From Candidatus Helarchaeota archaeon (lineage in GTDB: Archaea > Asgardarchaeota > Lokiarchaeia > Helarchaeales > RDOG01): a stretch of 64,000 bases of DNA. Each line of letters opens with the position of its first letter. Position 1 is the first letter of the stretch. Of the stretch, positions 10,983-64,000 are shown in pieces. Under the pieces are notes generated by a model. The model searched no databases, was not told the DNA's origin, and saw only the letters and a list, made by a program, of their open reading frames with translations. The position numbers and the translations under genes are program-made. The DNA lies in NCBI GenBank assembly GCA_019058315.1, contig JAHPZH010000003.1, positions 779,983 through 843,982 on the forward strand, written 5' to 3'.

Positions 10983-11064
10983 ATCAATTTTTGGATCTTG
11001 AGAACATATAGCAATAGTTTTTTTTAGTTCTATGTAAGATGCTGGTCCAATTAATGGATCTGAA

Positions 11065-13251: not shown

Positions 13252-13392
13252 TTTTTATTCCTTCTTTCAAATTGGATTTTAGGATCTTTTCTAATTTTTT
13301 TAAATAGGCTTTGAAATTGAAAAGATCAAGAGCCAAATGTTGATTTCCAATTATAATTCAAATCATTAAACCTCCTAACTCATATTTTTTTA

Positions 13393-13484
13393 TATTTATG
13401 AAAGTTCTAAATCCCTATTTTTTAAGAATTTAATAGGATCGATGTAAAATTTGAGTTTTTCAAATTTTTTTACTTTCATAAATA
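13393..13484. other. Nested inverted repeats (three-way-junction-like) upstream of the AAA+/VWA operon
   Basis: TATTTATGAAAGT 13393-13405 / ACTTTCATAAATA 13472-13484 enclosing CCTATT/AATAGG (13414-13437) and AAAATTTGA/TCAAATTTT (13446-13468). Confidence 0.55.
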
Positions 13485-13499
13485 CTCACTATTATTATG

Positions 13500-13553
13500 A
13501 AATGCGCAACCAATAAGTTTTTAATATATAAAGGGTCGAAAATGCGCAATTTC
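13500..13553 (-). promoter_or_regulatory. TATA-box promoter flanked by two AAATGCGCAA boxes
   Basis: AAATGCGCAA at 13500-13509 and 13540-13549; minus-strand CCTTTATATATTAAAAA between them (13534-13518). Confidence 0.5.
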
Positions 13554-13681
13554 TTCTAATTAAAGCATGAAAAATTTGAGAAAAGAATCAGAAATAAATA
13601 AATCTAATCAATAAATTCCCCTAGTTTATTGTTAAGTAAAAACTAGAATCTATAAACTAAATTAAAAAAATAAAAGAATAA

Positions 13682-14038
13682 TTATTTTTTCCCTTTCAAT
13701 GCCGCTGCAATCGCTCTGCCATAGCGGATTAGTTCCATCACTTTACCATTTTTAACCTCTATTTGTTCACGGCTAATTGCATGGGTAAAGTCACCTTGTC
13801 CTCTGCTTGATCTGGCAATACCTTCACCATCGCCCGTAATTAGTAAAGATGGATTCGAATGTTTTCCAGAAGTTAAGTTTGCCTTGCCATTTTTTACTTC
13901 TATATAGAATGGCTCTTCTGTTTTTAAATCAAATTGAAAAATTACGTTCCAATTTTCAGCTACTAGTATTTTTTGAGCCTTTGGATTATCATTAATTAAT
14001 TTTAAAATTTTTTCTGATTCAGCCCTTGCTTCACCCAT
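13682..14038 (-). CDS. SCP2 sterol/lipid-binding domain protein
   Basis: FQFDL...FYIEVKNGKA..G...PSLLITG...QIEVKNG pattern; GGAGGTG RBS precedes ATG 14038. Confidence 0.75.
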   Translation of the reverse strand: MGEARAESEKILKLINDNPKAQKILVAENWNVIFQFDLKTEEPFYIEVKNGKANLTSGKHSNPSLLITGDGEGIARSSRGQGDFTHAISREQIEVKNGKVMELIRYGRAIAAALKGKK

Positions 14039-14531
14039 CGGATGCACCTCCACCTTCGTATTCTGGTTTATTTATCCACATTTCATATTCATCTATTGGG
14101 ACAAAGAAAAAGTCAGTAATCTTACCCTCCCTTTCCTTTTTAAACACAGCTCTTACTTTTTTTCCAGCTTTAATTTTTGAGGGAACCAGACTTTCAGAAA
14201 ATATTCCTTGATTAATTGCGGTACTTGCTCCTTCCAATTGGATGTATCCTACAGCATAGGGGATATATTGAATAAAGGCAGATGTACTATACCAAACCAG
14301 TGTACTTACTTTAATTTCTCCAACATCCTTTATGGTAACCCATTCAGTTGGTTTATAACATTTAGCACAAGCAACGCGAGGAGGGCAATAAGTCGTTCCA
14401 CATTCTTTACATTTTGAACCTAAAATTCTTTTATTATCTCTTAACTCTATGAAAAACCTAGATTGTCCACCATAACTGTATTTATAGTTCATAATGATTT
14501 GATCTTCAATTTCATGGTAATTTTCTGTCAT
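14031..14531 (-). CDS. DUF35/ChsH2-type Zn-ribbon OB-fold protein
   Basis: GSKCKECG..YCPPR..CAKC, PYAVGYIQLEG; follows thiolase gene. Confidence 0.9.
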   Translation of the reverse strand: MTENYHEIEDQIIMNYKYSYGGQSRFFIELRDNKRILGSKCKECGTTYCPPRVACAKCYKPTEWVTIKDVGEIKVSTLVWYSTSAFIQYIPYAVGYIQLEGASTAINQGIFSESLVPSKIKAGKKVRAVFKKEREGKITDFFFVPIDEYEMWINKPEYEGGGASDG

Positions 14532-14533
14532 AT

Positions 14534-15739
14534 TTAGCCTCTCTCCATTACAATTATAGCAGAATACGCCGCACCAGGACCTCCTATTGAATGTGAGATT
14601 GCTCTTCCTTTTGAAATAGGCACTTGTCTTTTACCCGCTTTTTCTTTCAATTGCAAATAAGCCTCCCCAGTCGACATTATACCTGTAGCCCCAACAGCAT
14701 GTCCACAGCCAATTAGCCCTCCTGAGGGACAACATGGTAATTCTCCAGACATTAAGGGTCCACCATCGTCAAGCCAATCGCCTCCCTTTCCATATTCCAC
14801 GAATCCCAATTCTTCATAGGAAATAACTTCCTGTCCTGAAAATGCGTCATGTAATTCTGCAACATCAATTTGATTTTTAATATTATTATAATCTAGTCCA
14901 GCCATTTTATATGCACGCTTTGCAGCTGCAATATTTGAAGGTAATGCGCCTATACTTTTTCTATTACCAATAAAAGCGTCAGTGCATGCGGCTCCTGCTC
15001 CTGTAATCCAAACAGGATCATCAATTTTTAATTGTTTTACCTTTTCTTCTGATGCTAAAATCAAAGCAGCCGAAGCTTCGGAATATAGACAACAATCTAA
15101 CATTTTAAACGGATAACAAATTATACGTGAGTTTAGAACTTCTTCTACGGTTAATTTCATTGGTGATTGTGCCTTGGGGTTGTTCAGTGCATTTCCATGG
15201 TTCTTAATTGAGACTTTGGCCATTTGTTCTTCAGTGGGATTTCCGTATTTATCAATATGGGCGTTCACTAGAACCACGTAACTTGAGGCTGCTAACATAC
15301 CTAATGGGAATTCCCAAGTCATATCAGCAGAATAAGCAATTCCTTTTAGAACTTCGGGGGTTGTGGTACCAGTTTGTTTATCATAACAATCATTACACTT
15401 TTCAACACCTAAAACTAAACAAATATCCGCAAGACCACTAGCAACTTCAGCGTATCCCGTTCGAACTGTAAAGCCCCCTGTCGCTCCCCCAGTAGTAATA
15501 CGAGTTCCGGGTTTATCTATATTTCCAATATAGTCATTAACATAAATATCAGGCATAAATTGCCTTTCAAATAAATCATTGTAAATTCCATAAACTGCAC
15601 TATCTATTTCTTTGATTGTAATTCCTGCGTCATTTAAACTTTCATTAGCTGCATCGTATGCTAATTCAAAATAAGTTTTTTCAGGCCATCTTGCCTTAAA
15701 TGGAGTCATTCCAAATCCTATAATTGCTACTTTTCTCAT
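14534..15739 (-). CDS. Thiolase-family (SCP-x/Ltp2-like) protein
   Basis: KNHGNALNNPKAQ, ELHDAF, PSGGLIGCGHAVGATG. Confidence 0.88.
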   Translation of the reverse strand: MRKVAIIGFGMTPFKARWPEKTYFELAYDAANESLNDAGITIKEIDSAVYGIYNDLFERQFMPDIYVNDYIGNIDKPGTRITTGGATGGFTVRTGYAEVASGLADICLVLGVEKCNDCYDKQTGTTTPEVLKGIAYSADMTWEFPLGMLAASSYVVLVNAHIDKYGNPTEEQMAKVSIKNHGNALNNPKAQSPMKLTVEEVLNSRIICYPFKMLDCCLYSEASAALILASEEKVKQLKIDDPVWITGAGAACTDAFIGNRKSIGALPSNIAAAKRAYKMAGLDYNNIKNQIDVAELHDAFSGQEVISYEELGFVEYGKGGDWLDDGGPLMSGELPCCPSGGLIGCGHAVGATGIMSTGEAYLQLKEKAGKRQVPISKGRAISHSIGGPGAAYSAIIVMERG

Positions 15740-15858
15740 AAAAAATAAAAAGATAGGATATATTATAAAAAACTTTGGAATTCTTTAATTTCTAATTTAA
15801 AGATAAATTAGTAAAATAAAATGTTTTATTTTTGAAAAAATTCTAAGAATTGATTCAA

Positions 15859-16068
15859 TCAGAATGTTTTTATTAATTCAATAATTGAATCAAACATAGG
15901 AATTACACCATCATATTGAACTATTCCATTTTCCTTTAATTTCTTAAGAACTAGACGAACACCTTCGAATTTTTCTCCACAAATTCGATTTAATTGTTTA
16001 TAATCCATCTTTCCATCATTATCTTGTAAAGTTTTCACTAAAAATTTCTCATTTTCATTTAATTCCAA
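15859..16068 (-). CDS. Small winged-helix-like protein
   Basis: 69 aa, GGAGG RBS, L..NE..LV..L..NDG.M...L / LKKLKENGIV pattern. Confidence 0.6.
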   Translation of the reverse strand: MELNENEKFLVKTLQDNDGKMDYKQLNRICGEKFEGVRLVLKKLKENGIVQYDGVIPMFDSIIELIKTF

Positions 16069-50591: not shown

Positions 50592-53500
50592 ATGGGCATG
50601 GATAATATACTTACAGTTAAGCCAGATTATTTGGGGAGATTAAATCTTATAACTGCAGTTGATCTATTTCGTGAATTACTTTGGGCTGAAGCAAGAAAAA
50701 ATGGAATACCAATAAGTAAGATTCATGTTTCAAGTCGTGTAACTGTAGCTGATGGAGGAATAGATGCTGAAGTTGATGAAACCAATATCACAAGTGATTT
50801 AATAATATCAGGAACAACAGGCTATCAGATAAAAACTGGTACTTCATTTGAACCATGGAGAGAATCTATAATAAAAAAAGAATTATTTGGTGAAAATAAA
50901 CCCGCAATTCTACAGAATTTAGGTCTAAGTATTAAAAATATTCTTGATAAAAATGGTACCTATGTAATCGTTTGTTTTGGGCATGATCTTGTATCTACCC
51001 AACGTACAGAAGCTCGAAGTATTATCTACGACTTTTTGACCGATTGTGGATATGAAAACCCGGATATAGAAGTTTGGGGTCAGACACAATTAATAGGATT
51101 TATTAGTGTATTTCCTTCATTGGTCTTGAAATTGATGGGTAGAGATAATTTAAAATTTCAGTCTCATACAAGTTGGGCTATGCAAGATGACATGAGAAAA
51201 ACATTTAACGCAGGAGAAGAACAACTAAATTTCATTCGTAAAATGCAAGATGAGTTAAGAAAAAATGACAAAGCTATACACATTAGAGTATTTGGTGAAC
51301 CAGGCATTGGCAAGACAAAACTTGTTTTAGAAGCCACAAGAGCGGAAGACCTTTCACCGCTAATTTTATACTGCAGCTCAGCTTCTATATTCAGAGATAG
51401 CAATTTAATGTACGAGCTTTTAAGGACTGATAATCAATTTCATGTGATCATAGTGATAGATGAATGTGATCAAGACAATCGTTCATATATATGGAACAAA
51501 TTTAAACATTATGGACCAAGAATAAAAATAATCTCAATTTTTAATGAATTTGATGAAACTACAGGGAACATTACCTATCTTGAAGTATTTAAACTGGAAA
51601 ATGAACAGATTTCTCTAATAATTCAGGGATATGGAATTGGTGAAGCACCTTCCATTAGATTTGCCGAAATTTGTGGCGGATCTCCAAGATATGCCCATCT
51701 TATTGGAAATAATTTAAGATATAATCCTGATGATATTTTTAAACCTCCTGATACGGTAGATATATGGACAAAACAAATTATTGGATCCGATCCTCCAGAT
51801 AGTGAGAAAGTTAGAAAAATAAGAATAATTCTTCGTCATATAGCACTCTTTAAAAAATTTGGTTATGAAAAACCTGCTGGTTCAGAAGCGGAAGAGATTT
51901 TAAAACTTATACAAAAAGTAGATCCCGATATCTCATGGGGTCATTTTCAAGAAATTATTGAGGAACTAAGAAATCGCAAGATACTTCAAGGTGAATTCAC
52001 TTTATATATAACTCCTAAAGCACTTCATATTAAATTATGGATAGAATGGTGGGAAATTTACGGAAAGTCAATTAAATTAGAAGAATTTTTAAAAAATCTT
52101 TCTTCACAGTTAAGGGAATGGTTTAATAATATGTTTAAATATGCTAAAGAGTCAAAATTTTCTTTAGAGAAAGTAAATGAAATTCTAGGAGAAAATGGAC
52201 CATTTCAAAAAGATTTTTTTTTTAATACCTCTTTAGGAGCAAAATTTTTTCTTGCTTTGACAGAAGCCAACCCTAAATCTGCATTAATATGCCTTAATAA
52301 AACAATCGGTCAAATGAGTAGGGAAGAACTTACAAAATTCAAAGATGGTCGCAGAGAGATAGTTTGGGCTCTTGAAAAGATAGTTATCTGGAAAGATTTA
52401 TTTATTGGAGGAGCTGATATTTTATTAGCACTTGCTGAAGCAGAAAATGAATCATGGTCAAATAATGCTACTGGTATTTTTATTGATTTATTTTCTCCTG
52501 GTTTTGGTCATGTTTCTATGTCAGAGGCATCACTTGAAGAAAGATTTCCAATTTTAGAAAAAGCAATTGAGTCAGATTCGAAGCTAAAGCGTGAAATAGG
52601 ATTTAAAGCATTAAATAATTCACTCAAGACTGGAAGATTTTCACGTATAGTGGGTGCAGAATATCAAGGGTTAAAAATGGGACCTAAATTTTGGGTTCCT
52701 AAAAATTATGAGGAAATTATAGACTGGTACTCAAAAATTTGGGATTATTTATTAGATAAAATGGATTATTTGATTGAAGATGAAAAGAGTACTGTAATTG
52801 ATATTCTACTTAATAATTCAAGAAATTTGATAATAATAAAAGAATTAACTAGAAAAATTATTGAAACATTAAAATTTTTAATAGAGAAGTTTGAACATAA
52901 AAGAAATGATATATTAAAGCATATTATAAATATTATACGTTATGAAAACAAAAATTTGGATGAAATTACATTAAATGAATTAGAGAACTTGAAGAAAAAA
53001 ATAATTGGAAATGATCTCCATTCCTTATTAAAAAGGTATGTAGGATTGATACTTATTGAAGATATGATTGACGAAAATGGAAAACATATTGATAAGAAAA
53101 AACCAATACTTGAAAAATTGGCAGTTGATGCAATTAAAAATAAAGAGAAATTAATACATGAGTTAGAATGGTTAACAACTTCTGAAGCAAAGGATGGCTC
53201 CAGATTTGGTTATGAATTAGGAATTAAAGATGAAAATTTTTCTTTGTTACCTAAATTAATTGAAACACAGAAAAAAATAAAACCAGATTCAAGTTTTATG
53301 TTTCTTTCTGGCTATTTTCGTGCGGTTTTTGAATTGAATCAGAATTTATGGGAAGAAAAATTAGATAACCTTAAAGAAAATAAAGAAACCATTAAATGGA
53401 TTCCTGAATTGACATTTAGAACAGGAATTACTGATAGAGCTGCTCTCCGTCTGCTTAGATTATTAGAAAAAGGATCTTTAGAGATAAAAGATTTTCAGAA

Positions 53501-54386
53501 TTATTTGTTGGGGAATGTTTTTAAGGTACTTTCTGAAGATATTGTCGAGAAATGGATAAGTTACTTATTAAAATTATCCAATAAAATAGCAATTAATCTA
53601 ATTTTAAATATACTTCATTTTTATTATTTATTAAAAAAGCCAAAAAAGAAATTACCTAAAGATATTACATTTAGGGTTTTAACTTCTCCAGTATTAATTC
53701 AAATGCCAAGTAATGTAGGATATCATTCATTAGAATTGGATTGGATAGAAATTGCCAAAGAATTTATATCATTATATCCAGATTCGAGTATTAAGCTTGC
53801 TGATAAAATTTTAGAAAACTTTGGGAAGGAAGGAACAATTTTTGATAGATATAACTCAAGAACTCCGACAATTCTTAATCAGATAACAATAAAGTCTCCA
53901 AAAGAAGTCTGGGAAAAAATTATAAAATATATAGGTCCCCCTATAGATTCAAGGGCATTTCATATAACAAAATGGTTGAGAGGGGATGAATTCTCGGAAT
54001 TTGGAATTAGAGGTGCTTTATCTGTTATACCTCCACAAGAAATATGGAAATGGATAGATCAAAATATTGAAGAACGAGCATGGTATGTTGCAAGTTTTGT
54101 ACCCAAAATTCTTTTTAGAGACCCAGACAAAATTTGTTTAGCAAGGGAAGTTCTTGTTAGATATGGAAATAGAAGAGATGTGAAGGATAATTTAATAGCT
54201 AATTTTTTAACAGAGGGTTGGATGGGACCTGCAAGTGTTTATTTTCAAAGTAAAAAAGACAAACTAATAGAATTTGCAAAATCTGAAAAAAATGAATTTG
54301 TAGTTAACTGGATTAATGAATATATCTCTCAAATAGAAAAAGATATAAAAAATGCAAAATTTCAAGAAGAACGACGTTTTCCTTAG
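50592..54386 (+). CDS. Restriction-endonuclease-like effector + STAND-type NTPase + helical repeat domain (AVAST/Avs-like antiviral candidate)
   Basis: ADGGIDAEV...GYQIKTG (D..QxK nuclease), Walker A GEPGIGKT, Walker B IIVIDEC, CGGSP (GxP), long helical C-terminus; 1264 aa. Confidence 0.75.
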   Translation: MGMDNILTVKPDYLGRLNLITAVDLFRELLWAEARKNGIPISKIHVSSRVTVADGGIDAEVDETNITSDLIISGTTGYQIKTGTSFEPWRESIIKKELFGENKPAILQNLGLSIKNILDKNGTYVIVCFGHDLVSTQRTEARSIIYDFLTDCGYENPDIEVWGQTQLIGFISVFPSLVLKLMGRDNLKFQSHTSWAMQDDMRKTFNAGEEQLNFIRKMQDELRKNDKAIHIRVFGEPGIGKTKLVLEATRAEDLSPLILYCSSASIFRDSNLMYELLRTDNQFHVIIVIDECDQDNRSYIWNKFKHYGPRIKIISIFNEFDETTGNITYLEVFKLENEQISLIIQGYGIGEAPSIRFAEICGGSPRYAHLIGNNLRYNPDDIFKPPDTVDIWTKQIIGSDPPDSEKVRKIRIILRHIALFKKFGYEKPAGSEAEEILKLIQKVDPDISWGHFQEIIEELRNRKILQGEFTLYITPKALHIKLWIEWWEIYGKSIKLEEFLKNLSSQLREWFNNMFKYAKESKFSLEKVNEILGENGPFQKDFFFNTSLGAKFFLALTEANPKSALICLNKTIGQMSREELTKFKDGRREIVWALEKIVIWKDLFIGGADILLALAEAENESWSNNATGIFIDLFSPGFGHVSMSEASLEERFPILEKAIESDSKLKREIGFKALNNSLKTGRFSRIVGAEYQGLKMGPKFWVPKNYEEIIDWYSKIWDYLLDKMDYLIEDEKSTVIDILLNNSRNLIIIKELTRKIIETLKFLIEKFEHKRNDILKHIINIIRYENKNLDEITLNELENLKKKIIGNDLHSLLKRYVGLILIEDMIDENGKHIDKKKPILEKLAVDAIKNKEKLIHELEWLTTSEAKDGSRFGYELGIKDENFSLLPKLIETQKKIKPDSSFMFLSGYFRAVFELNQNLWEEKLDNLKENKETIKWIPELTFRTGITDRAALRLLRLLEKGSLEIKDFQNYLLGNVFKVLSEDIVEKWISYLLKLSNKIAINLILNILHFYYLLKKPKKKLPKDITFRVLTSPVLIQMPSNVGYHSLELDWIEIAKEFISLYPDSSIKLADKILENFGKEGTIFDRYNSRTPTILNQITIKSPKEVWEKIIKYIGPPIDSRAFHITKWLRGDEFSEFGIRGALSVIPPQEIWKWIDQNIEERAWYVASFVPKILFRDPDKICLAREVLVRYGNRRDVKDNLIANFLTEGWMGPASVYFQSKKDKLIEFAKSEKNEFVVNWINEYISQIEKDIKNAKFQEERRFP

Positions 54387-54505: not shown

Positions 54506-55681
54506 ATGAAGTTTAATAATATCGATGAAAGGAAACTATATTCAGTGATTAACAAAGAACTCTTTGATGAATTGGATAAAGAATATTGGGATAAGAGAAT
54601 GGAAATTATAGGGTATGAAGTTTATACAGATTGTGCTATTAGTGGGGAATGGATTTATGATCCATATTTCTTATTAATTGATGAAAATTTTAAATCTAAC
54701 CAAAAAGCAAATAAAAAATTAAAATTGATAATAACTTTTTTTCGATATCCAAGAGAAAATATCATCTCTCCCCAAACTGCAACGAAAAAGGAACAATTTT
54801 ACCATGGTGGTCATATTGAGAATGAAATTGTTACACTTGCATCCCTCTTCTTACGTAAAAGATTTGAACTTGGACCAATGATTTTTATGGGTAATAAGGA
54901 TGTAATTGCTAGACCAATCAAAAAACAAATAAAAACACCCAATAATGAAGATAAAACTAAGAATATACCTGCACCTGAGATTATAACAATAAATAATCCA
55001 TTAATTGATCCAGAAATAGTTGAAAAAACTAATAATCTTAACGAATTGACAGAATGGTTCAAATTATTAGAAAAACTAGATCCGAAATACCATTTAAAAT
55101 TTATGCTAGCCGTAAGAATGTATTATCAAGCGTTATTTCAAATCGAAAAAGAACCAGATCTAGCATATTTGAATCTAGTTTCAGCAATTGAAGTTTTGTG
55201 TCAAGATACTAATATTGGTGAAATCAAACTTACTGAAATTAATCAAAAGTTGGCTAAACTTTTAGAATCTATAGACAATGTTCAATTAAGAAATGATATT
55301 GAAAAATCTATTTTAAAAGAAAAAAAGTTTATAGCACGTAAATTTAGTAAATTCATTCTAAATAATATCGAAAATAATTTTTGGAATGAACCAAATCGAC
55401 CAAATACAGGAAGAATTACTCATGAAGAGCTTCCTGATTTATTAATGAAAATTTATCAACAGCGTTCAAGGACATTACATAGTGGAGAACTTTTTCCACC
55501 ATTTAAGACAATGATGAGATTTGTACCAAGAGAGGAAATAAATAAACGGGCAGTATGGTGTCTAGATAGAATTCAATGGTATCCCAAAGATCTAATTCCT
55601 TATCCTCAATTTTTTGAAAAACTGGTGAATCATGTATTAAAAACATTTCTTAGGAGAAATCAATTAAAGAAAGATATTTGA
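54506..55681 (+). CDS. ApeA-like HEPN-domain RNase
   Basis: AYLNLVSAIEVL helix and R-x4-H motif RSRTLH (55463-55480); GGAGG RBS before ATG 54506. Confidence 0.75.
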   Translation: MKFNNIDERKLYSVINKELFDELDKEYWDKRMEIIGYEVYTDCAISGEWIYDPYFLLIDENFKSNQKANKKLKLIITFFRYPRENIISPQTATKKEQFYHGGHIENEIVTLASLFLRKRFELGPMIFMGNKDVIARPIKKQIKTPNNEDKTKNIPAPEIITINNPLIDPEIVEKTNNLNELTEWFKLLEKLDPKYHLKFMLAVRMYYQALFQIEKEPDLAYLNLVSAIEVLCQDTNIGEIKLTEINQKLAKLLESIDNVQLRNDIEKSILKEKKFIARKFSKFILNNIENNFWNEPNRPNTGRITHEELPDLLMKIYQQRSRTLHSGELFPPFKTMMRFVPREEINKRAVWCLDRIQWYPKDLIPYPQFFEKLVNHVLKTFLRRNQLKKDI

Positions 55682-55980
55682 AATTAGAATATATTTAAAA
55701 TATATACCTAGAATAAAGGTTCAGAAAGTTATCACAAATTCAGATAAATGTCATGATTGATAAAATTTCAATTTAACATAAATCAGAATATATTATATTA
55801 TCAACCCTGGCAGCACTATAAATTACAACTGTATTGACTAATCTACGATAGCAATATCAAACATACCTAAACATCCTAATATATTATTAAAGGTAAATGA
55901 ATAAAATACATTCAGATTTTGGATTTAAAATATAGTAATGAACTACCAAACAGGAAACTGAATGATATTCGTCCCGATTT

Positions 55981-56105
55981 TGTCATCATACTCCTCACGG
56001 AGTCGGAGGAACTGGCTGGTCCACACAGCCCCTTGCCGTACATCTCAGAGACCTCTTGATGTAAGGCACTGTGTCAAAGTTTGCGAATTGTCGAGAGACT
56101 TTGCC
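55981..56105 (-). ncRNA. Putative TnpB omegaRNA scaffold / element right end
   Basis: GC-rich run of hairpins overlapping the tnpB 3' end: 56075-56103, 56034-56068, 56014-56030 and ACTCC-GTGA-GGAGT (GNRA loop on minus strand, 56003-55990). Confidence 0.6.
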
Positions 56106-57448
56106 CCGCTTTGAGTCGTATTAATGGCACCATTTAATATGGCGGAGGCTGATAAATCCACATTACCCGTTGCCAACAATCTCACCTTCCGTATCATCGG
56201 AAAGTTCTTAACTGATGGCACTTTTTTAAACTTTGACAATAAATTCACATATCCAATTATTGTTTTCAAACCATTATTCATTTTATGTGAGCCACTGTAT
56301 AAATCCATAAGTCCTTTTAGGGCAATATTCAACGACGCATTTCTATCCCTATGATCAACATGACCACAATGGCTACATTTGAAAAGCCTTTTATGTTTAT
56401 GTGATTCTTTTTTAGTCTGGCAGACTACACAGTTCTGGGAAGTATAGTGAGGGTTAACGCAATAACTAAAATAACCACGAATAAATGCTTTATATGTAAT
56501 AAAATCTTGCAACTTCTTAAATCCCCAATTGTGATATTTCAAATTATTCTTTTTTCCCCAATTTATATTATCCCGGATATTTGTGAGGTCCTCGAAAATA
56601 ACTACAGGATTTTGAAACTTTGAAATCCACTCTACTGCCAATTTACTAGCAATATGAAGGATATGATTTGTAATTTTTCGCTGTTTTTTACCTACTTTTT
56701 TTACCATTGAAGTTTTATTACGTTTCTGGAGTCGTTTTCTTATCTTGAAAAATTGATATCGTTGATGAGCAAGAGGTGAATAATCTATTATAAGAGACCC
56801 TAAAACCTCACCATTTGAATTCAACGCACTTAAAGCTAAATTAGTAGTATTATTATCAATACCAATAAAAGTATAACTTTTAAAATCATCATATGTTGCC
56901 TTTTTTCCCAAATCAACATTAATAATTAAATAATATTTTTTCCCCATTTTTTTCAAATTTGCACTCCCAAATTTTAAAGCTTCTGCAAGTCCAAGCTCGA
57001 CTATTTTCATATGTCGCTCTGAACCAATAAATTCTAAGATCATCCTTACACCCTTTCTCATACTAATCCTAACTTGATTATGTTTTAATAATCTATACCC
57101 TTCATTTGGTCTAAGTCGAACAGTCATAGATTTGATTACTGGATTAGGTGGTCTAGCACGATTATCAACTTTACTCTTTCTTAAATACGACTTTATAGAT
57201 TCATTTGCCACATCACGGCAACATTGCCTAGTACTTGCTAATATATTCCCCTTTACTTGACAGCTTTCCAAAAACATTTTAGAATAACGTCCAGACTTTT
57301 TCCAATGTTCCAGATATTGTTTGTAAACCGCCCCATACTCTCTCATTAGATCGTCTAATTGTTCTTCTACCTTTTTTGAGGTAATCAAAAGCTTAAATTT
57401 CATCGCAATTATGAGATTATCTTTTTTATTTTTGTTATTCCAAGGCAT
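56045..57448 (-). CDS. tnpB: TnpB / Cas12f-like RNA-guided endonuclease (IS200/IS605-IS607 family), no adjacent tnpA
   Basis: RuvC-I FIGID, RuvC-II VIFEDL, W.F..LQ..I.YKA, YTSQNCVVC..FKCSHCG Zn finger, RuvC-III HRDRNASLNI. Confidence 0.92.
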   Translation of the reverse strand: MPWNNKNKKDNLIIAMKFKLLITSKKVEEQLDDLMREYGAVYKQYLEHWKKSGRYSKMFLESCQVKGNILASTRQCCRDVANESIKSYLRKSKVDNRARPPNPVIKSMTVRLRPNEGYRLLKHNQVRISMRKGVRMILEFIGSERHMKIVELGLAEALKFGSANLKKMGKKYYLIINVDLGKKATYDDFKSYTFIGIDNNTTNLALSALNSNGEVLGSLIIDYSPLAHQRYQFFKIRKRLQKRNKTSMVKKVGKKQRKITNHILHIASKLAVEWISKFQNPVVIFEDLTNIRDNINWGKKNNLKYHNWGFKKLQDFITYKAFIRGYFSYCVNPHYTSQNCVVCQTKKESHKHKRLFKCSHCGHVDHRDRNASLNIALKGLMDLYSGSHKMNNGLKTIIGYVNLLSKFKKVPSVKNFPMIRKVRLLATGNVDLSASAILNGAINTTQSGAKSLDNSQTLTQCLTSRGL

Positions 57449-57498
57449 AACTTATCTATTATTAATTTATATATAAACCCCCCTTTAATTTTAGTTTG

Positions 57499-57717
57499 GG
57501 AAAGACTTTCCGAAAATTTTAATTATATAAACTTTGACACTCGCCGCTTTTTTTGGTTCCAGAACATTTTGTCCTTTCTTAGATTAGTCTAGAGCCAAAT
57601 TTGGAATCAAAATCGTTATGTTATTTATAAAGTAAAATTAGCAATTTGGCGTTTTTGGAAAAGTGGTCTAAGAAAAATTTAAATATCAAACATAGAGCCT
57701 GGCTTTCCTAAAATTTT
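57499..57717. promoter_or_regulatory. Structured divergent intergenic region between tnpB and the giant ORF
   Basis: GGAAAG-A-CTTTCC palindrome 57499-57511; CTTTCC(G/T)AAAATTTT direct repeat at 57506 and 57703; long stems within 57551-57675. Confidence 0.45.
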
Positions 57718-57762
57718 TTCGAAAATTTTGTGAAAATTTCGGAGTTGAAAAAATTGCTCGCA

Positions 57763-60700
57763 ATGTCGTCATACTTTAATAAGTTGAAATTACATCTGAA
57801 AAGGAATGGTATTGAGGAAGATAAACTATATGAACACCAAAAAAAAGCACATAAGTTATTATTTGAGGGTTTTAATTATGCTGCCTTTGTTCCAACAGGT
57901 TTTGGAAAAACAGAAGATGCTTTGGCTGCTCTTGGACGTGCATTATATTATAATCGAGTTGGGGTTTATCTCGTACCCCGAGTGATGTTGCTCCACCAAA
58001 AAGCAAAACTGCTAAAAACATTCTTTAAGGGAATCGCACGGGTTATTATCATCCAAGGTGATATAAAACCCCACCCAAGGGAGTTAAAGAGTCCGTGGGG
58101 AAAGCTCATTATTGTGGCAACATTTGAGAGCTTTAGAGCTTTCTTATTCTCAATCCAAAAAAGAAAATATTTTGACAGAAAAACGAATATCTTTGGTTCT
58201 GTAGTTATTGATGAAGTGCACATGCTCGGAGACAGAACCCATGGAGCTGCACTTGAGACAATGCTATATAAATTACATAGGGAGCACGATTCTCAGTTTT
58301 GTTTTTTAAGTGGGAGTTTTGAAAAAACTTCTGCTGATTGGTGGTGCAAAAGGTTCAACTGTAAATTAGAATATATATCTCACGAACGGGATTTTTATTG
58401 CTGGAATATTTACGCCGAGTATCCTACTTTTAAATGGAAGGATAATAAAATCAAAGGATTATGCTACGAATTTTTAGAATTTCATATATCTCACGATATT
58501 CAGGATTCAGCAGAAATACGCTCAGGAAAGATGGTGATTTTTGCGAGAAGTCGTAAAAAAGCGGAAATATATTGTAATAACGTTAAAAACTCCTTAACAT
58601 CTAGTAGACCTAAGTATGAAGACCATTTTAAATGCAGTTTTATACACGCGGGTATGGCATTAGAGGAAAGAAAACAAATTTTTGATGAGTTTAACAGTGA
58701 TGAGGGTGTTAGATTTCTTTTTTGTACAACAGTGATTGAAGTAGGTATCGATGTAAAAAATATTGAGGTGGTCTTGATAGAAGATGCTCATTCGTATTCA
58801 GCCATTAAAAGAACCCAGATGATTGGCAGGATGAGGTTGAATCATGGAGTAGTCATAAATATAATTCGAAATTTTTCTAAACGAATTTTTAAAGAATCAA
58901 TAATTTATGAAAAAACATACCTCGCGAATCAAATCTTACCCAGTATAAATTGTGTACTATTAGGTCTGTATTTTAAGTTATTTGGGAAAAAGAGAATATT
59001 TAGGAGAAAAGAGTTTTCTTCGAAAGAATACGAGAAAGGTAATAATATATTTCATTATAAAGATACCGAACCCATTAGAGGGTATAAATTAAGAAAAATT
59101 TATAGTGACGTTAGTCTTGGACATTTACCCAATCTAATACTTGAATCGTTATTTCGTTCCCCAAAAAACTTATCACAAATACAACAACATATAAGGGGAA
59201 TAATTAGAGAGGACCTGCTCAATAAAAATGAAAATATGATTGAGGAAATAATTAAAAAATTCAAGGCTAAAAAATATATAAGGTCAACAGGAGGTATTTT
59301 TAGTTTAACATATCTTGGGGAGGCTATAGTGGAGGGACACTTACCAGAATTATATTTAGATTGGGTTCTAAAGCTATTCGAAGATGATATCAATCTCCCG
59401 ACTCGAAAATTAAAAACATTAATTGCAGAAATGGTCGCGATCAAAGAAGCAAATTTTAAGAATTATGATGATGTAAAAAAATTCGTTAGAAAATACAATA
59501 ATGACCCGATAATTTATGCTGAAAATCTTAAAAAATATGGGATTTTAAAGGGAGATGCAGATGTTTATCGTCGCTGTGCTGCTTGGATTGCTAGCGCTAT
59601 TTACTTACTTTATAGGGGGTATCAGTTCCATAATTACGTTGAAAAAGTTCGTTCCAACAATGAATGCAAAAATGAAAGTGTGTCTTCAAAAAACTGTCCT
59701 AATTATTTACAAGTGAGACTCAAGGAACCAAGGAAAACTTCTAAAAGGATTTGTAATAGAATTAATCGAATTATTAAAACTTTTCAAAAACCTGGTAAGA
59801 ACATAAATCTGCAAAAACCTCCCATGTGGGAGTATCAAAAATATCATAGTCCAAATGAGGCTGCCTTATTAGACGAAAAGATCATTAAAGTAATGGGAGA
59901 AAATGATGGGCCTACTAAATATGAACTTACCCAAAAAATTAACCGCGACCCTGACTATAAAGACACCCTTATTACAGAGTCAAGAATTGCAGGACGGTTG
60001 AGAAAAAGCCTGGCATCAGAAATTCAGTGTGTCAAGGTTTACAATAATATTGGCGCACCCTATTTCAGATATTATTTAAAGGGAAATGTGCCAGAGCAAA
60101 GTGAGTTCACTTGCGCAGATTGTAATAATTTTGATAAAGATCCGGCCAGAAGGATTTCAACAGCAGCTACAATTTATACTTGCCAAAAATTGCAAATAGC
60201 GATAAACGCGAATACCCCTTCATGCGCTCATTTTGAACCGTATGAAAATGAATCTAGGACGTTTGCTATTTTTCCATTCAAATGGAACGTAGAGATATGC
60301 CCCAATTGTAATAAGAGAAAAACTATAAGAATGCCTCAACATGGAGAAGCGACCATTTGTAGGTATTGTAATGCCCTTGTTGAGCGAACGGGCAATGGTA
60401 CTTTTAGAACCACTACCAGACATAAAATCTCAGAAGACTTGGTCTTGAAGGATGATAATGGGATGAAATATATTGAAACTGATCCGAATAAGAGGGCAAT
60501 TTTTGTTCCAAAGAACCATGCATTAGTAACTGAATTCATTCCCCAAGGGAAATATTACATCGTTAAAGTACATGGACTCGGAATACGATCTTTTTTACAA
60601 CAGGTCGCTGAAGTGGTCATGGCAGGGGGGACTATATGCGAGGATACTAAAGAACTTCTGAAACAATATGAAATAAAAATAACAACTTTTTCTGATGAAC

Positions 60701-63700
60701 AAGTTCAAGAGCTGGAACAAAGAAAAAAACGGGAAGATGAGCTTCGGAAATTACTTCGAAGTAAGAGAGCTAAGGGAGAATCATTAAACATTGCACAAGA
60801 GCGGAATTACGCTAAAATTACCTCTGAGATGCTTTGTCTTAAAAAAATGAGGCGGTTATTTCCTGAATATACATCCCTTATTAATAAGACAATTAAAAAA
60901 ATGATGGACCAGCTTATTCAAACCTATTTAGACACAAACCAAGAGTTAGCTAGGGCGAAAAAAAAGAAGGAAATAGTCCAACTAGTAACCAAAAAATTAC
61001 GGATGATAGAAGGTATAGTTACAGAGTTCGGTTGGAAGGTTTATAGAGTAATAATAGGAGATAAATGTCCTGAATTAGAAACCTATGGAAGAGGAGCGAC
61101 GAGATTTGCCCGATCTATAAGAAAGAGTAAAGGTAAAGCCCTTGATAAATTAAATGCAGTGTTAAATTATCTGTATTATCAGCTCCAAATAGTAGGAAGT
61201 GAGGCGTTATACGAAGCTGGATTTTCTAAACGGTTTCCAGGACCGGGTTTATTGCATTACAGGAGAAAAAAGCCTAGAAAACGCGGAAGAAAATATAAGG
61301 CATTGTACTGGACCATGACGAAAAGAAATCAGGGAGCAATTTTTGATTTTATAGATCAATATAAACCCATCATAAATTTCTATCTATTTAGATTCATCCT
61401 TGATGGGGAGTTGGATCCTAAAACAGACATTTGGCAAAAATATGATGAACGAAAAAGAAGGATTTATTACCTTTCTCCACACGGAAGAAATAAAATAAAA
61501 GAGTTATTTGAACAAATTTGTTCCTTAAAATTTGTATATAAAAATAAAAAATTCACCTTTAAAACCATAATGAGAAAAGAAGCTGAAAACTTAGCTAGAT
61601 ATTTAGAATCAAAACGCAAAATAATTTATACTCCTTTTTTTGCCTTTGAAACTGAAGATGATGCGATTTGGGCGCATAGCAGCTTACGCTTCATACATAA
61701 TGTTTTGGGAAAGGGGAAATATAGAGGGCATATATCTCAACATTTTGAAACCAAATATGCGAAAAAACGGAAAAAAGTAACGCGTAGAAGACGGACTGTC
61801 CCCTCCGAACCCAAAAAGTTACCTATTAATGTAGTTATCGTGCACCATGTCGATTTTGACGGGTTTAAGTCTGCACTTAACCTCGTCTATAAACACCTAA
61901 ATGACAGGATACATCTTTTTTATGCAACAAACAAAAAAGGAAGAAATTATATTGAATCGGTGCTTGAAAATAAGATAGCAAGTGTGTTACACCGAAACAT
62001 GAAAAACATAATTTATATAGCAGATTTTCCTCTACCGCTAGAGCGTAAAGACTTTCTTTTAAATTTTTTAACTGGGTTAAAGAGGAGAGGGTTGACATTT
62101 GAGCCCTACTGGTTCGATCACCACGATACTTCTGGAGTTCGGCAAATGAGGAAAGTGTTACAAGAGTTCAGTGGGAAATTCATCCATACAAATGATGAGA
62201 CTGTTGAAACGTATGATTTAATAATAAACCATATTAGAAGTGCTCGACCTAGAATTAAGGATGTTAAAGCATATCAACAACTTAAAATTGATACAGTAGA
62301 GGATTTTGATGATAAATTGAGAACCATAAATACTTCTGCTAATTTAAGTAATTGGCATGAACAATATGACTATTATCGCCTTGTATCTCATTATAAAATA
62401 AATTTTCTTAATTTTTTTAAGCGCATTTGTGTGTGTGAAATAAACGAAGAAATACCTAAAGAGACTAAAGGATTTAAACGGTATCAAGCTAAGATTGAGG
62501 CACTTATTAAAAACCCTAATCAATTGTTATATTATTATGAATTTGGGGAAACCGGTTACGGGTATACATATGCACTATTTATGTTTAAGAAAAGCTTTCC
62601 ACTTAGAAAAATTGATAAGCTTGTAAAAACCCTGGGTAGAAATCCCAGAGAATTGGATATCAAGATTTTTTACTGGTCAGACCATACCATATCATTACGT
62701 GCAAAAAAATCAACTCCCATTAGCTTCCACGGGCTGTTAGGTGAGCAGGAGGGACACAAAAAAGCTTCTGGAGTACATTCACTAAAGGTCAAATTTATCC
62801 CTCATAATATAGATGCTTATAATTACCTTGATTTTGAATATGGGTATGTCACGTCCATAGCAGAGTTTATGGCAAGGCTCAAAATTAGCCCTCTTCAACA
62901 AGCATCTGGAGCGTTTTCCGCTATAAAAACCGGCATATCCACCTTTGATAAGTATGAATATGACTTTATGACCCTTTCGGATATGGGAGAGCCTTGTTTT
63001 CCTACATTTTTAAAGAAAATGGATAAAGTAATAAAAGGGTTTCATAGGGGTTCGGTAATTTTGCTATTTTGTCATAAATATGACCGACATAGGATGATGT
63101 ATTTTATCAAATATTTGATGTTAATAGCACAGCACAAAAAAGGATTGCACTCAAAAAAAGTAGTGTGCATTGATACAACAGCATATCCCTTTTATCGAAA
63201 GATGCTCTCATTCATGAAAACGTATGGAAAGTTTACTCTGGAGCATCTAAAAAATATCATATTCATTAATACATTGAATTTAGCTAAGTTACATGATGCA
63301 GTGGATGGGTTAAAAGGAATAATAGAAACCTATCAGCCAAGATTAGTGGTGATAACTTCCCCATTTGCTAGTATTAGAAAGAAACATCCAATTAAGAACC
63401 ACTTAATTCCTTACGAGGTAGAAACTACCTCTATACGGTCAACGGAAGCGGCACGATTAATGATGAAAATTAAAAAGATAGCACGAAATACAGGGACGAT
63501 ATTCTTGCTTACCCACCACGTAAATTGGTATAAAGTATTTAAGACCAAGAACCCCTACCTCTATAACTCAATAAGCTTTGATACCTCAATTTTCTTAAAA
63601 AAAGAAGAACACAACACACTTAAATTTCATATAACCCACATAAGGCAACCAGATGCGACATGTAACATAAAACTTGAACTCAAGAGAAAGATGCTTCAAT

Positions 63701-64000
63701 TGCATGATATATGTTACAGCTCTATATTAAAAGGAACTAAAGTAATTCGCAATAATATCACAGAATCCTGCCCCGAATTAGCTTATTGCATGGAAGGATA
63801 TAATAAATATGGGGTAAAATTCCTTATTTTTAAGTTCAATCGAGGGGTTCGTGGAGTCCATAAATTAAGAAACAGGCTAGGGATTAACAGAAGTCTAGAT
63901 ATTGTTATAAGGGCGGATAATAGAATAGATGTTTATAACTTTGAGCCCGAATTTATTAATTTAGACGCTCTATTACATTTTGGGGGAGTCCCAAATGAAG
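57763..64000 (+). CDS. Giant multidomain Cas1-fusion protein (Hel308-like SF2 helicase - wHTH/Zn fingers - Cas1 - DHH/DHHA1 - degenerate RadA - DHHA1-like), 3'-truncated by the window
   Basis: Hand-translated frame has no stop from ATG 57763 to 64000 (2079 codons; in-frame GTG/TTG at 57730/57745/57754). Motifs: PTGFGKT, DEVH, HAGM, QMIGR; LRMIEG, DKLNAVLNYLY, GLLH, DFIDQYKP; HHVDFDG, IADF, FDHH, GHKKASG; VVCIDT, LVVITS. Confidence 0.88.
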   Translation, partial: MSSYFNKLKLHLKRNGIEEDKLYEHQKKAHKLLFEGFNYAAFVPTGFGKTEDALAALGRALYYNRVGVYLVPRVMLLHQKAKLLKTFFKGIARVIIIQGDIKPHPRELKSPWGKLIIVATFESFRAFLFSIQKRKYFDRKTNIFGSVVIDEVHMLGDRTHGAALETMLYKLHREHDSQFCFLSGSFEKTSADWWCKRFNCKLEYISHERDFYCWNIYAEYPTFKWKDNKIKGLCYEFLEFHISHDIQDSAEIRSGKMVIFARSRKKAEIYCNNVKNSLTSSRPKYEDHFKCSFIHAGMALEERKQIFDEFNSDEGVRFLFCTTVIEVGIDVKNIEVVLIEDAHSYSAIKRTQMIGRMRLNHGVVINIIRNFSKRIFKESIIYEKTYLANQILPSINCVLLGLYFKLFGKKRIFRRKEFSSKEYEKGNNIFHYKDTEPIRGYKLRKIYSDVSLGHLPNLILESLFRSPKNLSQIQQHIRGIIREDLLNKNENMIEEIIKKFKAKKYIRSTGGIFSLTYLGEAIVEGHLPELYLDWVLKLFEDDINLPTRKLKTLIAEMVAIKEANFKNYDDVKKFVRKYNNDPIIYAENLKKYGILKGDADVYRRCAAWIASAIYLLYRGYQFHNYVEKVRSNNECKNESVSSKNCPNYLQVRLKEPRKTSKRICNRINRIIKTFQKPGKNINLQKPPMWEYQKYHSPNEAALLDEKIIKVMGENDGPTKYELTQKINRDPDYKDTLITESRIAGRLRKSLASEIQCVKVYNNIGAPYFRYYLKGNVPEQSEFTCADCNNFDKDPARRISTAATIYTCQKLQIAINANTPSCAHFEPYENESRTFAIFPFKWNVEICPNCNKRKTIRMPQHGEATICRYCNALVERTGNGTFRTTTRHKISEDLVLKDDNGMKYIETDPNKRAIFVPKNHALVTEFIPQGKYYIVKVHGLGIRSFLQQVAEVVMAGGTICEDTKELLKQYEIKITTFSDEQVQELEQRKKREDELRKLLRSKRAKGESLNIAQERNYAKITSEMLCLKKMRRLFPEYTSLINKTIKKMMDQLIQTYLDTNQELARAKKKKEIVQLVTKKLRMIEGIVTEFGWKVYRVIIGDKCPELETYGRGATRFARSIRKSKGKALDKLNAVLNYLYYQLQIVGSEALYEAGFSKRFPGPGLLHYRRKKPRKRGRKYKALYWTMTKRNQGAIFDFIDQYKPIINFYLFRFILDGELDPKTDIWQKYDERKRRIYYLSPHGRNKIKELFEQICSLKFVYKNKKFTFKTIMRKEAENLARYLESKRKIIYTPFFAFETEDDAIWAHSSLRFIHNVLGKGKYRGHISQHFETKYAKKRKKVTRRRRTVPSEPKKLPINVVIVHHVDFDGFKSALNLVYKHLNDRIHLFYATNKKGRNYIESVLENKIASVLHRNMKNIIYIADFPLPLERKDFLLNFLTGLKRRGLTFEPYWFDHHDTSGVRQMRKVLQEFSGKFIHTNDETVETYDLIINHIRSARPRIKDVKAYQQLKIDTVEDFDDKLRTINTSANLSNWHEQYDYYRLVSHYKINFLNFFKRICVCEINEEIPKETKGFKRYQAKIEALIKNPNQLLYYYEFGETGYGYTYALFMFKKSFPLRKIDKLVKTLGRNPRELDIKIFYWSDHTISLRAKKSTPISFHGLLGEQEGHKKASGVHSLKVKFIPHNIDAYNYLDFEYGYVTSIAEFMARLKISPLQQASGAFSAIKTGISTFDKYEYDFMTLSDMGEPCFPTFLKKMDKVIKGFHRGSVILLFCHKYDRHRMMYFIKYLMLIAQHKKGLHSKKVVCIDTTAYPFYRKMLSFMKTYGKFTLEHLKNIIFINTLNLAKLHDAVDGLKGIIETYQPRLVVITSPFASIRKKHPIKNHLIPYEVETTSIRSTEAARLMMKIKKIARNTGTIFLLTHHVNWYKVFKTKNPYLYNSISFDTSIFLKKEEHNTLKFHITHIRQPDATCNIKLELKRKMLQLHDICYSSILKGTKVIRNNITESCPELAYCMEGYNKYGVKFLIFKFNRGVRGVHKLRNRLGINRSLDIVIRADNRIDVYNFEPEFINLDALLHFGGVPNE

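Follow-up and report, generated by a model that had tools for sequence, protein, structure and literature searches.

The window analyzed here is a stretch of 64,000 nucleotides of DNA from a Candidatus Helarchaeota archaeon, and forms the final 64 kb of contig C11 in an assembly (G000) of 5.8 Mb and 12 contigs. At its right-hand end it carries two divergently oriented genes, a tnpB and a giant open reading frame (ORF) whose product joins helicase, Cas1, DHH phosphoesterase and Rad51-like domains (Table 1). The giant ORF was open from a GTG at 57730 (2,090 codons) or from an ATG at 57763 (2,079 codons) to position 63999; the latter frame had been noticed in a first-pass annotation and held when it was recomputed. 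The stop codon is absent because the window ends where the contig ends, at an assembly break. Five giant genes of this kind were found in the genome, namely that of the window (protein P0001), P0002 on C11, P0003 on C7 (2,766 amino acids), P0004 on C6 (2,600 amino acids) and P0005 on C1 (1,439 amino acids). The product of P0002 (C11:723909-730391, hereafter the C11a copy) has 2,147 amino acids, is 77% identical to the window protein and extends 45 residues past the point at which the window ORF is cut. From this comparison the full-length window protein was estimated at about 2,135 residues. The ATG of P0002 was aligned with the GTG at 57730, which is therefore the probable true start.

Comparison of the window and C11a copies gave an overall ratio of non-synonymous to synonymous substitution rates (dN/dS) of 0.19 for the giant gene. 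By region, dN/dS was 0.09 for the helicase, 0.16 for Cas1, 0.17 for the DHH part and 0.20 for the Rad51-like domain, and the highest value within the protein (0.38) was that of the region following the helicase. The value for tnpB was 0.15, and dS was similar for the two genes (about 0.7-0.8). Both tnpB and all domains of the giant gene, including the inactive Rad51-like domain, are kept by purifying selection. The giant gene lies at a contig end inside repeated DNA, where an assembly chimera, or a decaying pseudogene that stayed open by chance, might be suspected. This explanation is extremely improbable: the 2,090 codons run without a stop through DNA of about 33% G+C (31-35% along the ORF), a full-length paralogue under the above constraint exists, and full-length homologous genes are present in other genomes. 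Logan contigs from the probable source run covered positions 55001-63810 with zero differences, although that run comes from the same sample as the assembly and is not independent, and two sequencing runs of another study contained fragments 90-99% identical to the locus. The check for a chimera that had been proposed with the first-pass annotation accordingly gave no sign of one. The giant frame is a real, intact archaeal gene.

The domain order first proposed from the letters alone was reproduced by profile and fold searches, and each of the motif coordinates agreed when recomputed from the translation (PTGFGKT at 57892, DEVH at 58210, QMIGR at 58816, HHVDFDG at 61843 and GHKKASG at 62752). 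The N-terminal part (residues 24-357) was matched by the Pfam models DEAD (9.9e-17) and Helicase_C (9e-16); it comprises two RecA domains with motifs I, II (DEVH) and VI intact. Its best NCBIfam matches were the Hel308-type archaeal models PRK01172 and PRK02362, in line with the Hel308-like superfamily 2 (SF2) helicase that had been claimed, and its nearest solved relatives were Hjm, Hel308 and the Pol-theta helicase (PDB entries including 2zj2 and 2p6r). A Hel308-like winged-helix and ratchet segment after the helicase core, part of the same claim, is possible but not established from sequence, the only profile match (PF21280, archaeal helicase domain 4) falling below threshold. The second winged helix-turn-helix (wHTH) and the two Cys4 sites of the first-pass annotation were recovered. 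The wHTH was modelled as three helices and a beta-hairpin with a predicted local distance difference test (pLDDT) score of about 90, and the corresponding region of homologue P0030 matched HTH_20/HTH_24. The Cys clusters (60112-60225 and 60298-60369) gave a weak match to the TFIIB Zn-ribbon; among 22 sequences C846, C849, C866 and C869 were invariant and C784, C787, C807 and C821 nearly so.

The Cas1 fold had been placed at 60490-61641, and several lines of evidence now agree with it. PF01867 matched residues 945-1169 with 24.5 bits against a cut-off of 22.3 when the segment was scanned alone, and every one of the four paralogue lineages scored above the gathering cut-off of this model (25-42 bits in the paralogues). 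The PADLOC Cas1 model matched the giant protein with an E-value of 5e-15, and TIGR00287 gave 38 bits, under its equivalog cut-off of 71.7. An AlphaFold model of the region had a mean pLDDT of 85; all of its 50 best PDB matches were Cas1 or casposase structures, aligned over about 400 columns with E-values down to 3e-12 and template-modelling (TM) scores, relative to the target, of 0.5-0.62. A profile of the paralogues compared with PDB found the Cas1 of A. fulgidus and the casposase of M. mazei. Residues E1083, H1165 and D1195 were invariant in 22 family members and aligned with the catalytic region of 4n06 and 6opm. Judged by sequence and predicted structure, the Cas1 domain is complete, with the catalytic Glu-His-Asp triad in place.

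The C-terminal third of the protein carries the DHH and Rad51-like parts. The DHH motifs (HxDxDG, D and DHH) were invariant in 13 sequences, and the model matched the fold of the PF0399 DHH domain (5yh1, Z 16.5), RecJ2 (Z 14.4) and Cdc45 (Z 12). These matches (VIA) span model residues 21-384, and a PAP phosphatase was also among them. A DHH phosphoesterase with DHHA1 had been proposed at this place. Pfam DHH was not found above threshold in the giant protein or in P0002, and it passed in homologue P0023 (29.1 against 28.1 bits). The domain that follows was described as RadA/Rad51-like with ruined ATPase motifs, and this description holds: a profile comparison with PDB found RAD51 (E 4e-6), as did Foldseek (E 2e-11), and the folds were superposed with a Z of 22 and a root-mean-square deviation of 2.5-2.8 across about 205 residues. 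In the alignment to RAD51 no Walker A motif (GxxxxGK[ST]) was found; the position of the RAD51 sequence GEFRTGKS shows no conservation in the profile of the family and reads CHKYDRHR in the giant protein, and another residue stands in place of the Walker B Asp. The domain is predicted to be a non-ATPase, and any filament role for it is speculative because the ATPase motifs are lost. The second DHHA1-like unit claimed for the C-terminus stood in part: about the last 100 residues showed strands and helices (model positions 680-770), phmmer cross-matches and a weak internal similarity to the DHHA1 part (BLASTP E 8e-4), and nothing stronger was obtained. No match to a TnpA family was found in the giant protein by Pfam and NCBIfam scans.

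Table 1. Features of the tnpB/giant-gene unit in the window and of related loci elsewhere. Positions are those of the window unless another sequence is named.
Feature	Coordinates	Strand	Basis or remark
TnpB-side terminus (probable omega-RNA/right-end region)	55938..56044	-	three-copy homology boundary
tnpB, 467 amino acids, TnpB/Cas12f-like RNA-guided nuclease	56045..57448	-	Pfam, PADLOC, TnpB alignment
Divergent intergenic region between tnpB and giant gene	57449..57729	.	within 81%-identical duplicated unit
Giant ORF	57730..64000	+	2,090 codons, cut by contig end, about 45 codons lost
SF2 helicase core (RecA1+RecA2), Hel308/Hjm/PolQ type	57832..58833	+	Pfam, NCBIfam, PDB relatives, invariant columns
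Post-helicase region (residues 358-699)	58834..59859	+	PF21280 E 0.088, below threshold
wHTH (residues 700-776)	59860..60090	+	model and match of homologue P0030
Two Cys4 zinc ribbons	60112..60369	+	Cys conservation in family
Cas1 domain (N-terminal beta and catalytic alpha domain)	60460..61722	+	profile, fold, triad
DHH/DHHA1 phosphoesterase, RecJ/Cdc45/NrnA-type fold	61816..62892	+	motifs I-III intact, model match
Rad51/RadA-fold domain without Walker A/B	62983..63690	+	profile, Foldseek, fold Z
C-terminal alpha/beta unit, weakly DHHA1-like	63691..64000	+	cut by contig end
1,264-amino-acid protein	50592-54386	+	PADLOC PD-Lambda-4_A E 3.6e-29; no Pfam match
C6 locus: PolB	169-2760 of C6:300000-313714	-	
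C6 locus: tnpB	2873-4348 of C6:300000-313714	-	
C6 locus: giant gene	4698-12500 of C6:300000-313714	+	
Csm3/Cas7-like gene	4775-5620 of C1:399000-415000	+	PADLOC E 1.2e-7
Split system on C9 of genome G247	6728-8374, 8686-12873, 12839-16015		LAGLIDADG-HTH, helicase-Cas1, second helicase

Cas1 with an intact active site might serve CRISPR adaptation, in which case the giant protein would be an unusual adaptation enzyme feeding spacers to an array elsewhere. The known prespacer-processing partners and fusions of Cas1 are found in Cas4-Cas1, RT-Cas1 and Cas2-DnaQ, and the helicase/nuclease fusions described here recall such partners. However, the five fusion genes are the only genes with a Cas1 domain in the genome, no canonical cas1 being found beyond them (Cas2 was not searched for), and there is no array near any of the copies or in a scan of the whole assembly, which at 94% completeness might lack an array of the genome. 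The single match of that scan, at the start of contig C10, is a coding 78-nt tandem repeat and was rejected as an array. A function in CRISPR adaptation is very unlikely.

The first-pass annotation described the giant gene product as a single-chain machine and treated tnpB separately. The two genes belong together: they are divergently arranged, the pairing is conserved, and the giant gene is not a stand-alone machine. The tnpB product was matched by Pfam Cas12f1-like_TNB (3.5e-18) and by PADLOC models for Cas12u3/Cas12f (down to 1.7e-27); alignment with the solved TnpB 9nzp showed that GiD, FEdL and DRNAS are retained, and the RuvC D/E/D residues and the Zn finger are apparently intact. Three of the six TnpB genes in the genome are arranged head-to-head with three of the five giant genes, and the same arrangement was found in four more genomes: G003, G006 (two loci), G242 and G247. 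The paired TnpBs fall into at least three groups, with 41-80% identity within a group and no more than 29% between groups. Such diverged groups, together with the recurring arrangement, indicate that the partnership is of long standing and has been maintained. No Y1 or serine TnpA is present in the unit, tnpB being the only gene that fits between the unit end at 55938 and the giant gene.

The family is rare and patchily distributed. An exhaustive HMMER profile search of 1.84 billion cluster representatives recovered 32 family representatives at E<=1e-10, most of them 1,100-2,600 residues long with the Cas1 part at the same relative place; ordinary Cas1 proteins appeared in this search from about E 1e-7. 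It replaced a word-indexed search with the Cas1 region, which covered near-length proteins only and gave no match. In our genome set the family was confined to one phylum, where it occurred in 15 of 400 genomes scattered across 8 families; within the class it occurred in 3 of 161. Named homologues come from metagenome-assembled genomes of Helarchaeota and Asgardarchaeia, and one is labelled Deferrimicrobium; their annotations read 'Cas1' or 'DEAD/DEAH box helicase'. The search of genomes for the same domain string, suggested earlier, thus yielded relatives, and shorter or split architectures as well. The shorter members consist of helicase-wHTH-Cas1 alone, and the C-terminal modules of the others differ, being DHH, leucine-rich repeats (LRRs) or a separate helicase-metallophosphatase. 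The C1 paralogue is a helicase-Cas1 protein ending in LRRs, and its neighbour also carries LRRs. In G242 and G247 a LAGLIDADG-HTH gene is followed by a helicase-Cas1 gene of 1,395 amino acids, with tnpB divergent upstream; a LAGLIDADG gene also precedes the C7 paralogue (L014:10596-11621). Next after the helicase-Cas1 gene in G247 comes a second helicase, which carries an MrfA Zn-binding domain together with a calcineurin-like phosphoesterase (metallophosphatase) and takes the position at which the DHH part is fused in the window protein. The ORFs after the Cas1 gene in G242 (C17) code for 443 and 615 amino acids. We take this recurrence of a helicase and nuclease companion of Cas1 in varied forms as the strongest indication that the function includes the processing of ends.

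Together, tnpB and the giant gene make up a unit of about 8.2 kb, which extends in the window from 55938 to just past the contig end and is present in three copies in the genome. Window positions 55932-64000 are 81% identical to C11:722151-730254 (the C11a copy). Of the third copy, one part lies at the end of C2 and the other at the start of C8. An internal deletion that begins within tnpB has removed all of its giant gene except the final 540 nt; the deletion joint, 57361 joined to 63464, was seen as a contig in the probable source run. Another joint, 56600 to 62802, was seen in a sediment metagenome of another study (run X2) with 21 letters on one side, too weak a support for a second deletion, and was left unused. 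The three copies (window, C11:722156 and C8:1-87) begin at the same base, window position 55938, and their flanks are unrelated. This common end lies 107 nt beyond the tnpB stop codon, with a subterminal hairpin, and its terminal sequence on the tnpB (minus) strand is GGTAGTTCAT. Exactly at the shared end base the C11a copy interrupts a gene for an ADP-forming acyl-CoA synthetase, which keeps only positions 1-71 of 116 in CoA_binding_2. The genome contains 27 full genes of this synthetase type (CoA_binding_2 and Succ_CoA_lig) in addition to the cut fragment. At the other side of the unit, homology between the C11a and C2 copies ends seven bases before the giant-gene stop codon. Assembly contigs break at unit copies here and in G006. 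A synteny check for an empty site found no orthologue of the MFS-like flank gene in five related genomes.

The end of the unit is marked by a sequence motif. CCATTCA-N13/14-GGTAGTTCAT was found at the TnpB ends at window 55938-55975, C11:722156, C8:1-87 and C6:302860, so that GGTAGTTCAT terminates the unit in four copies of the genome. The C6 TnpB, which is 27% identical, carries CCATTCA-N13-GGTAGTTCAT directly after its stop codon, and we could not account for the motif that the window and C6 tnpB share by common descent of the two genes. The motif was not found at the loci of G003, G006, G242 and G247. In the whole genome 50 occurrences of the 9-mer GTAGTTCAT were counted, where 72 would be expected; it is meaningful only by its position at TnpB ends. 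A third TnpB gene (C6:150809) is followed by GGTAGTTCAA.

The C6 locus also bears on a second known role of Cas1. Casposons combine a Cas1 casposase with a family-B DNA polymerase (PolB) and have terminal inverted repeats (TIRs) and target-site duplications (TSDs) of 14-15 bp. At C6 the paralogue adjoins tnpB and then a PolB gene (E 7.8e-56), and the Cas1 profile matched casposase 6opm almost as well as CRISPR Cas1, so a casposon-type self-synthesizing transposon might be considered. However, this was the only PolB neighbour in the nine loci examined, and it lies just outside the GGTAGTTCAT end on the TnpB side. No PolB is present inside the 8.2-kb unit, and neither TIRs nor TSDs were found, an absence that is provisional while the second unit end is not securely mapped. 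The casposon model is highly improbable for this unit.

Elements of a related kind have been predicted. According to the main text of Altae-Tran et al. (2023; PMC10691335), Asgard Cas1 variants (aCas1s) replace the Y1 or serine transposase beside TnpB in some loci, and the TnpBs of these loci form two Asgard groups, Cas1H-Asgard-1 and -2. The variants are credited there to Makarova et al. (2020, CRISPR J 3:156), with reference to whom the aCas1 is called a likely transposase and the aCas1-TnpB loci a likely transposon (PMC10691335). The same text reports flanking repeats at these loci and a conserved GTTCACTCA motif after a hypervariable stretch downstream of tnpB. The giant gene belongs to this known, experimentally uncharacterized computational prediction; it is not of the unrecognized kind for which the first-pass annotation had taken it. 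Full-text literature searches, which did not extend to Makarova et al. (2020) or to the supplementary material of PMC10691335, found no relevant paper with helicase-Cas1 wording or with the combination of Cas1, DHH and Asgard.

Based on these data, the most likely explanation is that the giant protein is an intact member of the Asgard aCas1 family, that it forms with tnpB an element with a Cas1 transposase and an RNA-guided partner, and that the resulting two-gene module (about 8.2 kb) is, or used to be, a mobile unit. We assign to this explanation as a whole a single joint probability of roughly 0.55. It is favoured because three copies share one exact end between unrelated flanks, one of them cuts a host gene and another is a deletion derivative, and because the family is scattered within the phylum and contig breaks coincide with copies. 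The suggestion that the protein is the transposase of a novel non-casposon element survives in its main part as the best-supported reading, the searches having revealed neither TIRs nor TSDs, no PolB conserved across the loci, and no array or further Cas1; novelty is the part that falls, aCas1-TnpB loci having already been published as a likely transposon.

In such an element the Cas1 domain would be the strand-transfer enzyme, taking the place of an IS605-type TnpA. The helicase and the DHH nuclease may expose or trim DNA ends or single strands for joining by Cas1, the wHTH and the Zn ribbons may bind the element ends or the target, and the inactive Rad51-like domain may bind single-stranded DNA or the host RadA. 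TnpB with its omega-RNA would cut the emptied or naive site and so provide retention or homing, as in IS605-family elements. Unwinding, trimming, filament engagement and integration by one chain, as first envisaged, is an idea that draws on the domain content. A bolder version would be natural RNA-guided Cas1 transposition, in which the site is picked by the omega-RNA and the element is placed there by the helicase-Cas1-DHH protein. Such a system, which we consider unlikely, would have arisen independently of CRISPR adaptation and of Tn7-type CRISPR-associated transposons; equally unlikely in our estimate is that CCATTCA-N13/14-GGTAGTTCAT would be the end recognized by Cas1.

A number of observations weigh against mobility. 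Near the giant-gene stop there was no inverted copy of the TnpB-side end, only chance 10-12-mers. The search for a target-site duplication, called for with the first-pass annotation, also gave a negative result, no direct repeat of the left flank being found within 60-120 kb; as with the TIRs, the limit set by the unmapped second end applies. The assembly does not contain the remaining half of the synthetase gene that the C11a copy interrupts; an orphan Succ_CoA_lig match on C9 was considered and proved to be a complete SucD-type gene. The copies are old (dS about 0.7), with no sign of recent movement. The two genes do not always travel together either: the two giant genes of G006 are 93% identical and their TnpBs 48%, and at three family loci in G307 no TnpB adjoins. 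In the two G006 copies (C14 and C87) the 93% DNA identity begins 230 nt before the giant-gene start and continues to the contig end on each, and the G006 pattern would point to gene conversion or module exchange.

The genomic surroundings also weigh on that side. The start of C2 matches, at 97%, sequence found 0.5 kb downstream of the giant gene in the C11a copy, which suggests that C2 follows C11 and that both full copies lie in a larger duplicated or recombining region. Assuming this order, the window and C11a copies share mosaic similarity over 13-31 kb of sequence downstream of the giant gene, and segmental duplication may thus account for some of the copy number. The mosaic colinear repeat involves C11:730869-761655 and C2:1-14606 and also C11:940-6944 and C1:18448-25203. 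Its genes include PNP-NACHT, PRTase-CE, Schlafen/AlbA_2 and an SSB and Rad51 pair (74-85% conserved between copies), and the region looks like a variable defence island. Both C11 copies stand among defence-type genes, a PD-Lambda-4_A-like gene lying 1.5 kb from the unit end in the window. Directly downstream of the giant gene, at C11a (L018:14418-14954, minus strand) and at C7 (L014:1374-1895, minus strand), there is a small protein with a winged helix and a coiled coil; it gave a weak TBPIP/Hop2 match at both places and a weak Csa3 match at C11a. Separately, many genes of the genome carry a repeat that recurs about every 177 nt (65-75% identical); it was seen at C11:718000-719150 and in dozens of other places, and is a large repeat-protein family.

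The main and serious rival holds that the giant gene and tnpB are a domesticated, non-mobile machine for defence or DNA repair, in which TnpB would be the RNA-guided sensor or effector and the copies would have arisen by segmental duplication in defence islands. The helicase, nuclease and Cas1 would then process invading or damaged DNA. The PD-Lambda-4_A-like neighbour, the genes that follow the C11a copy, the synteny shared by the two regions, the age of the copies, their purifying selection and the varied C-terminal modules all fit this proposal. So does the C1 locus, where a Csm3/Cas7-like gene, whose neighbouring ORFs gave no match, lies about 5 kb from the LRR-ended paralogue, an arrangement compatible with ARAMP modules (PMC8730458). 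On the other hand, the exact end, which coincides with the TnpB 3' end, in three copies with unrelated flanks, and the host gene truncated by one of them, speak against a defence or repair role. The patchy distribution and the contig breaks at the copies also argue for movement, and the third copy is an internally deleted relic. Internally deleted relics are typical of transposon decay. The neighbourhood itself does not discriminate, as mobile elements often gather in defence islands. We regard domestication for defence or repair as possible but doubtful, and the mobile aCas1-TnpB module as the preferred reading.

Cas1 is known in two settings, the capture of CRISPR spacers and the transposition of casposons. 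If the preferred reading is true, this module would represent a third, in which the integrase shares one chain with a helicase and a nuclease of its own and has an RNA-guided nuclease as its partner, in hosts that are the archaea closest to eukaryotes. It would bear on the repeated combining of integrases with RNA-guided nucleases in CRISPR and transposon evolution, and might yield a compact integrase with built-in end processing. To the published aCas1 prediction the locus adds a full domain map, intact active sites and selection on every domain, as well as one precisely placed end of the element, a host gene broken by it, a deletion derivative and a split-gene relative. The giant gene is rare and is of interest for CRISPR and transposon evolution, though it is not the unrecognized architecture first supposed.

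Several known systems resemble this unit in part. The Cas1 fusions of CRISPR adaptation (Cas4-Cas1 and RT-Cas1) likewise join an enzyme that makes or trims the substrate to an integrase with the Cas1 fold and triad; here, in contrast, there is no array and no other cas1, and the helicase, DHH and Rad51-like partners are not theirs. ARAMP modules of Asgard archaea consist of RAMP proteins and a distinct Cas1 (PMC8730458). The helicase-Cas1-LRR paralogue on C1 with its Csm3-like gene about 5 kb away is similar to them, whereas the window copy has no RAMP genes nearby and its partner is TnpB. Like casposons, the unit has a CRISPR-independent Cas1-family integrase proposed as transposase, with a DNA-binding HTH attached to Cas1, and the Cas1 model matched casposase 6opm (E 3.4e-10). 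Unlike them, it has no PolB, no TIRs or TSDs were found, its Cas1 is part of a chain with helicase and nuclease domains, and its partner is TnpB. The resemblance to IS200/IS605 elements lies in the accessory TnpB pointing to one end about 100 nt past its stop codon, the subterminal hairpin, the divergent gene order as in IS605 and the lack of TIRs and TSDs; the difference is that no Y1 or serine TnpA is present, a Cas1 fusion of 2,135 amino acids occupying that position, and that the unit measures 8.2 kb against 1.5-2 kb.

The likeness to the aCas1-TnpB loci includes a diverged Cas1 homologue in place of TnpA beside tnpB, named homologues from Helarchaeota and Asgardarchaeia, more than one TnpB group and a conserved motif containing GTTCA downstream of tnpB. 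The main text of PMC10691335, to which the comparison of the helicase, DHH and inactive Rad51-like parts was confined, does not set out the domains of its Cas1 protein. At the present unit no hypervariable segment before the motif and no flanking repeats were seen. The motif itself differs from the published one, being GGTAGTTCAT, and it stands at the very end of the unit.

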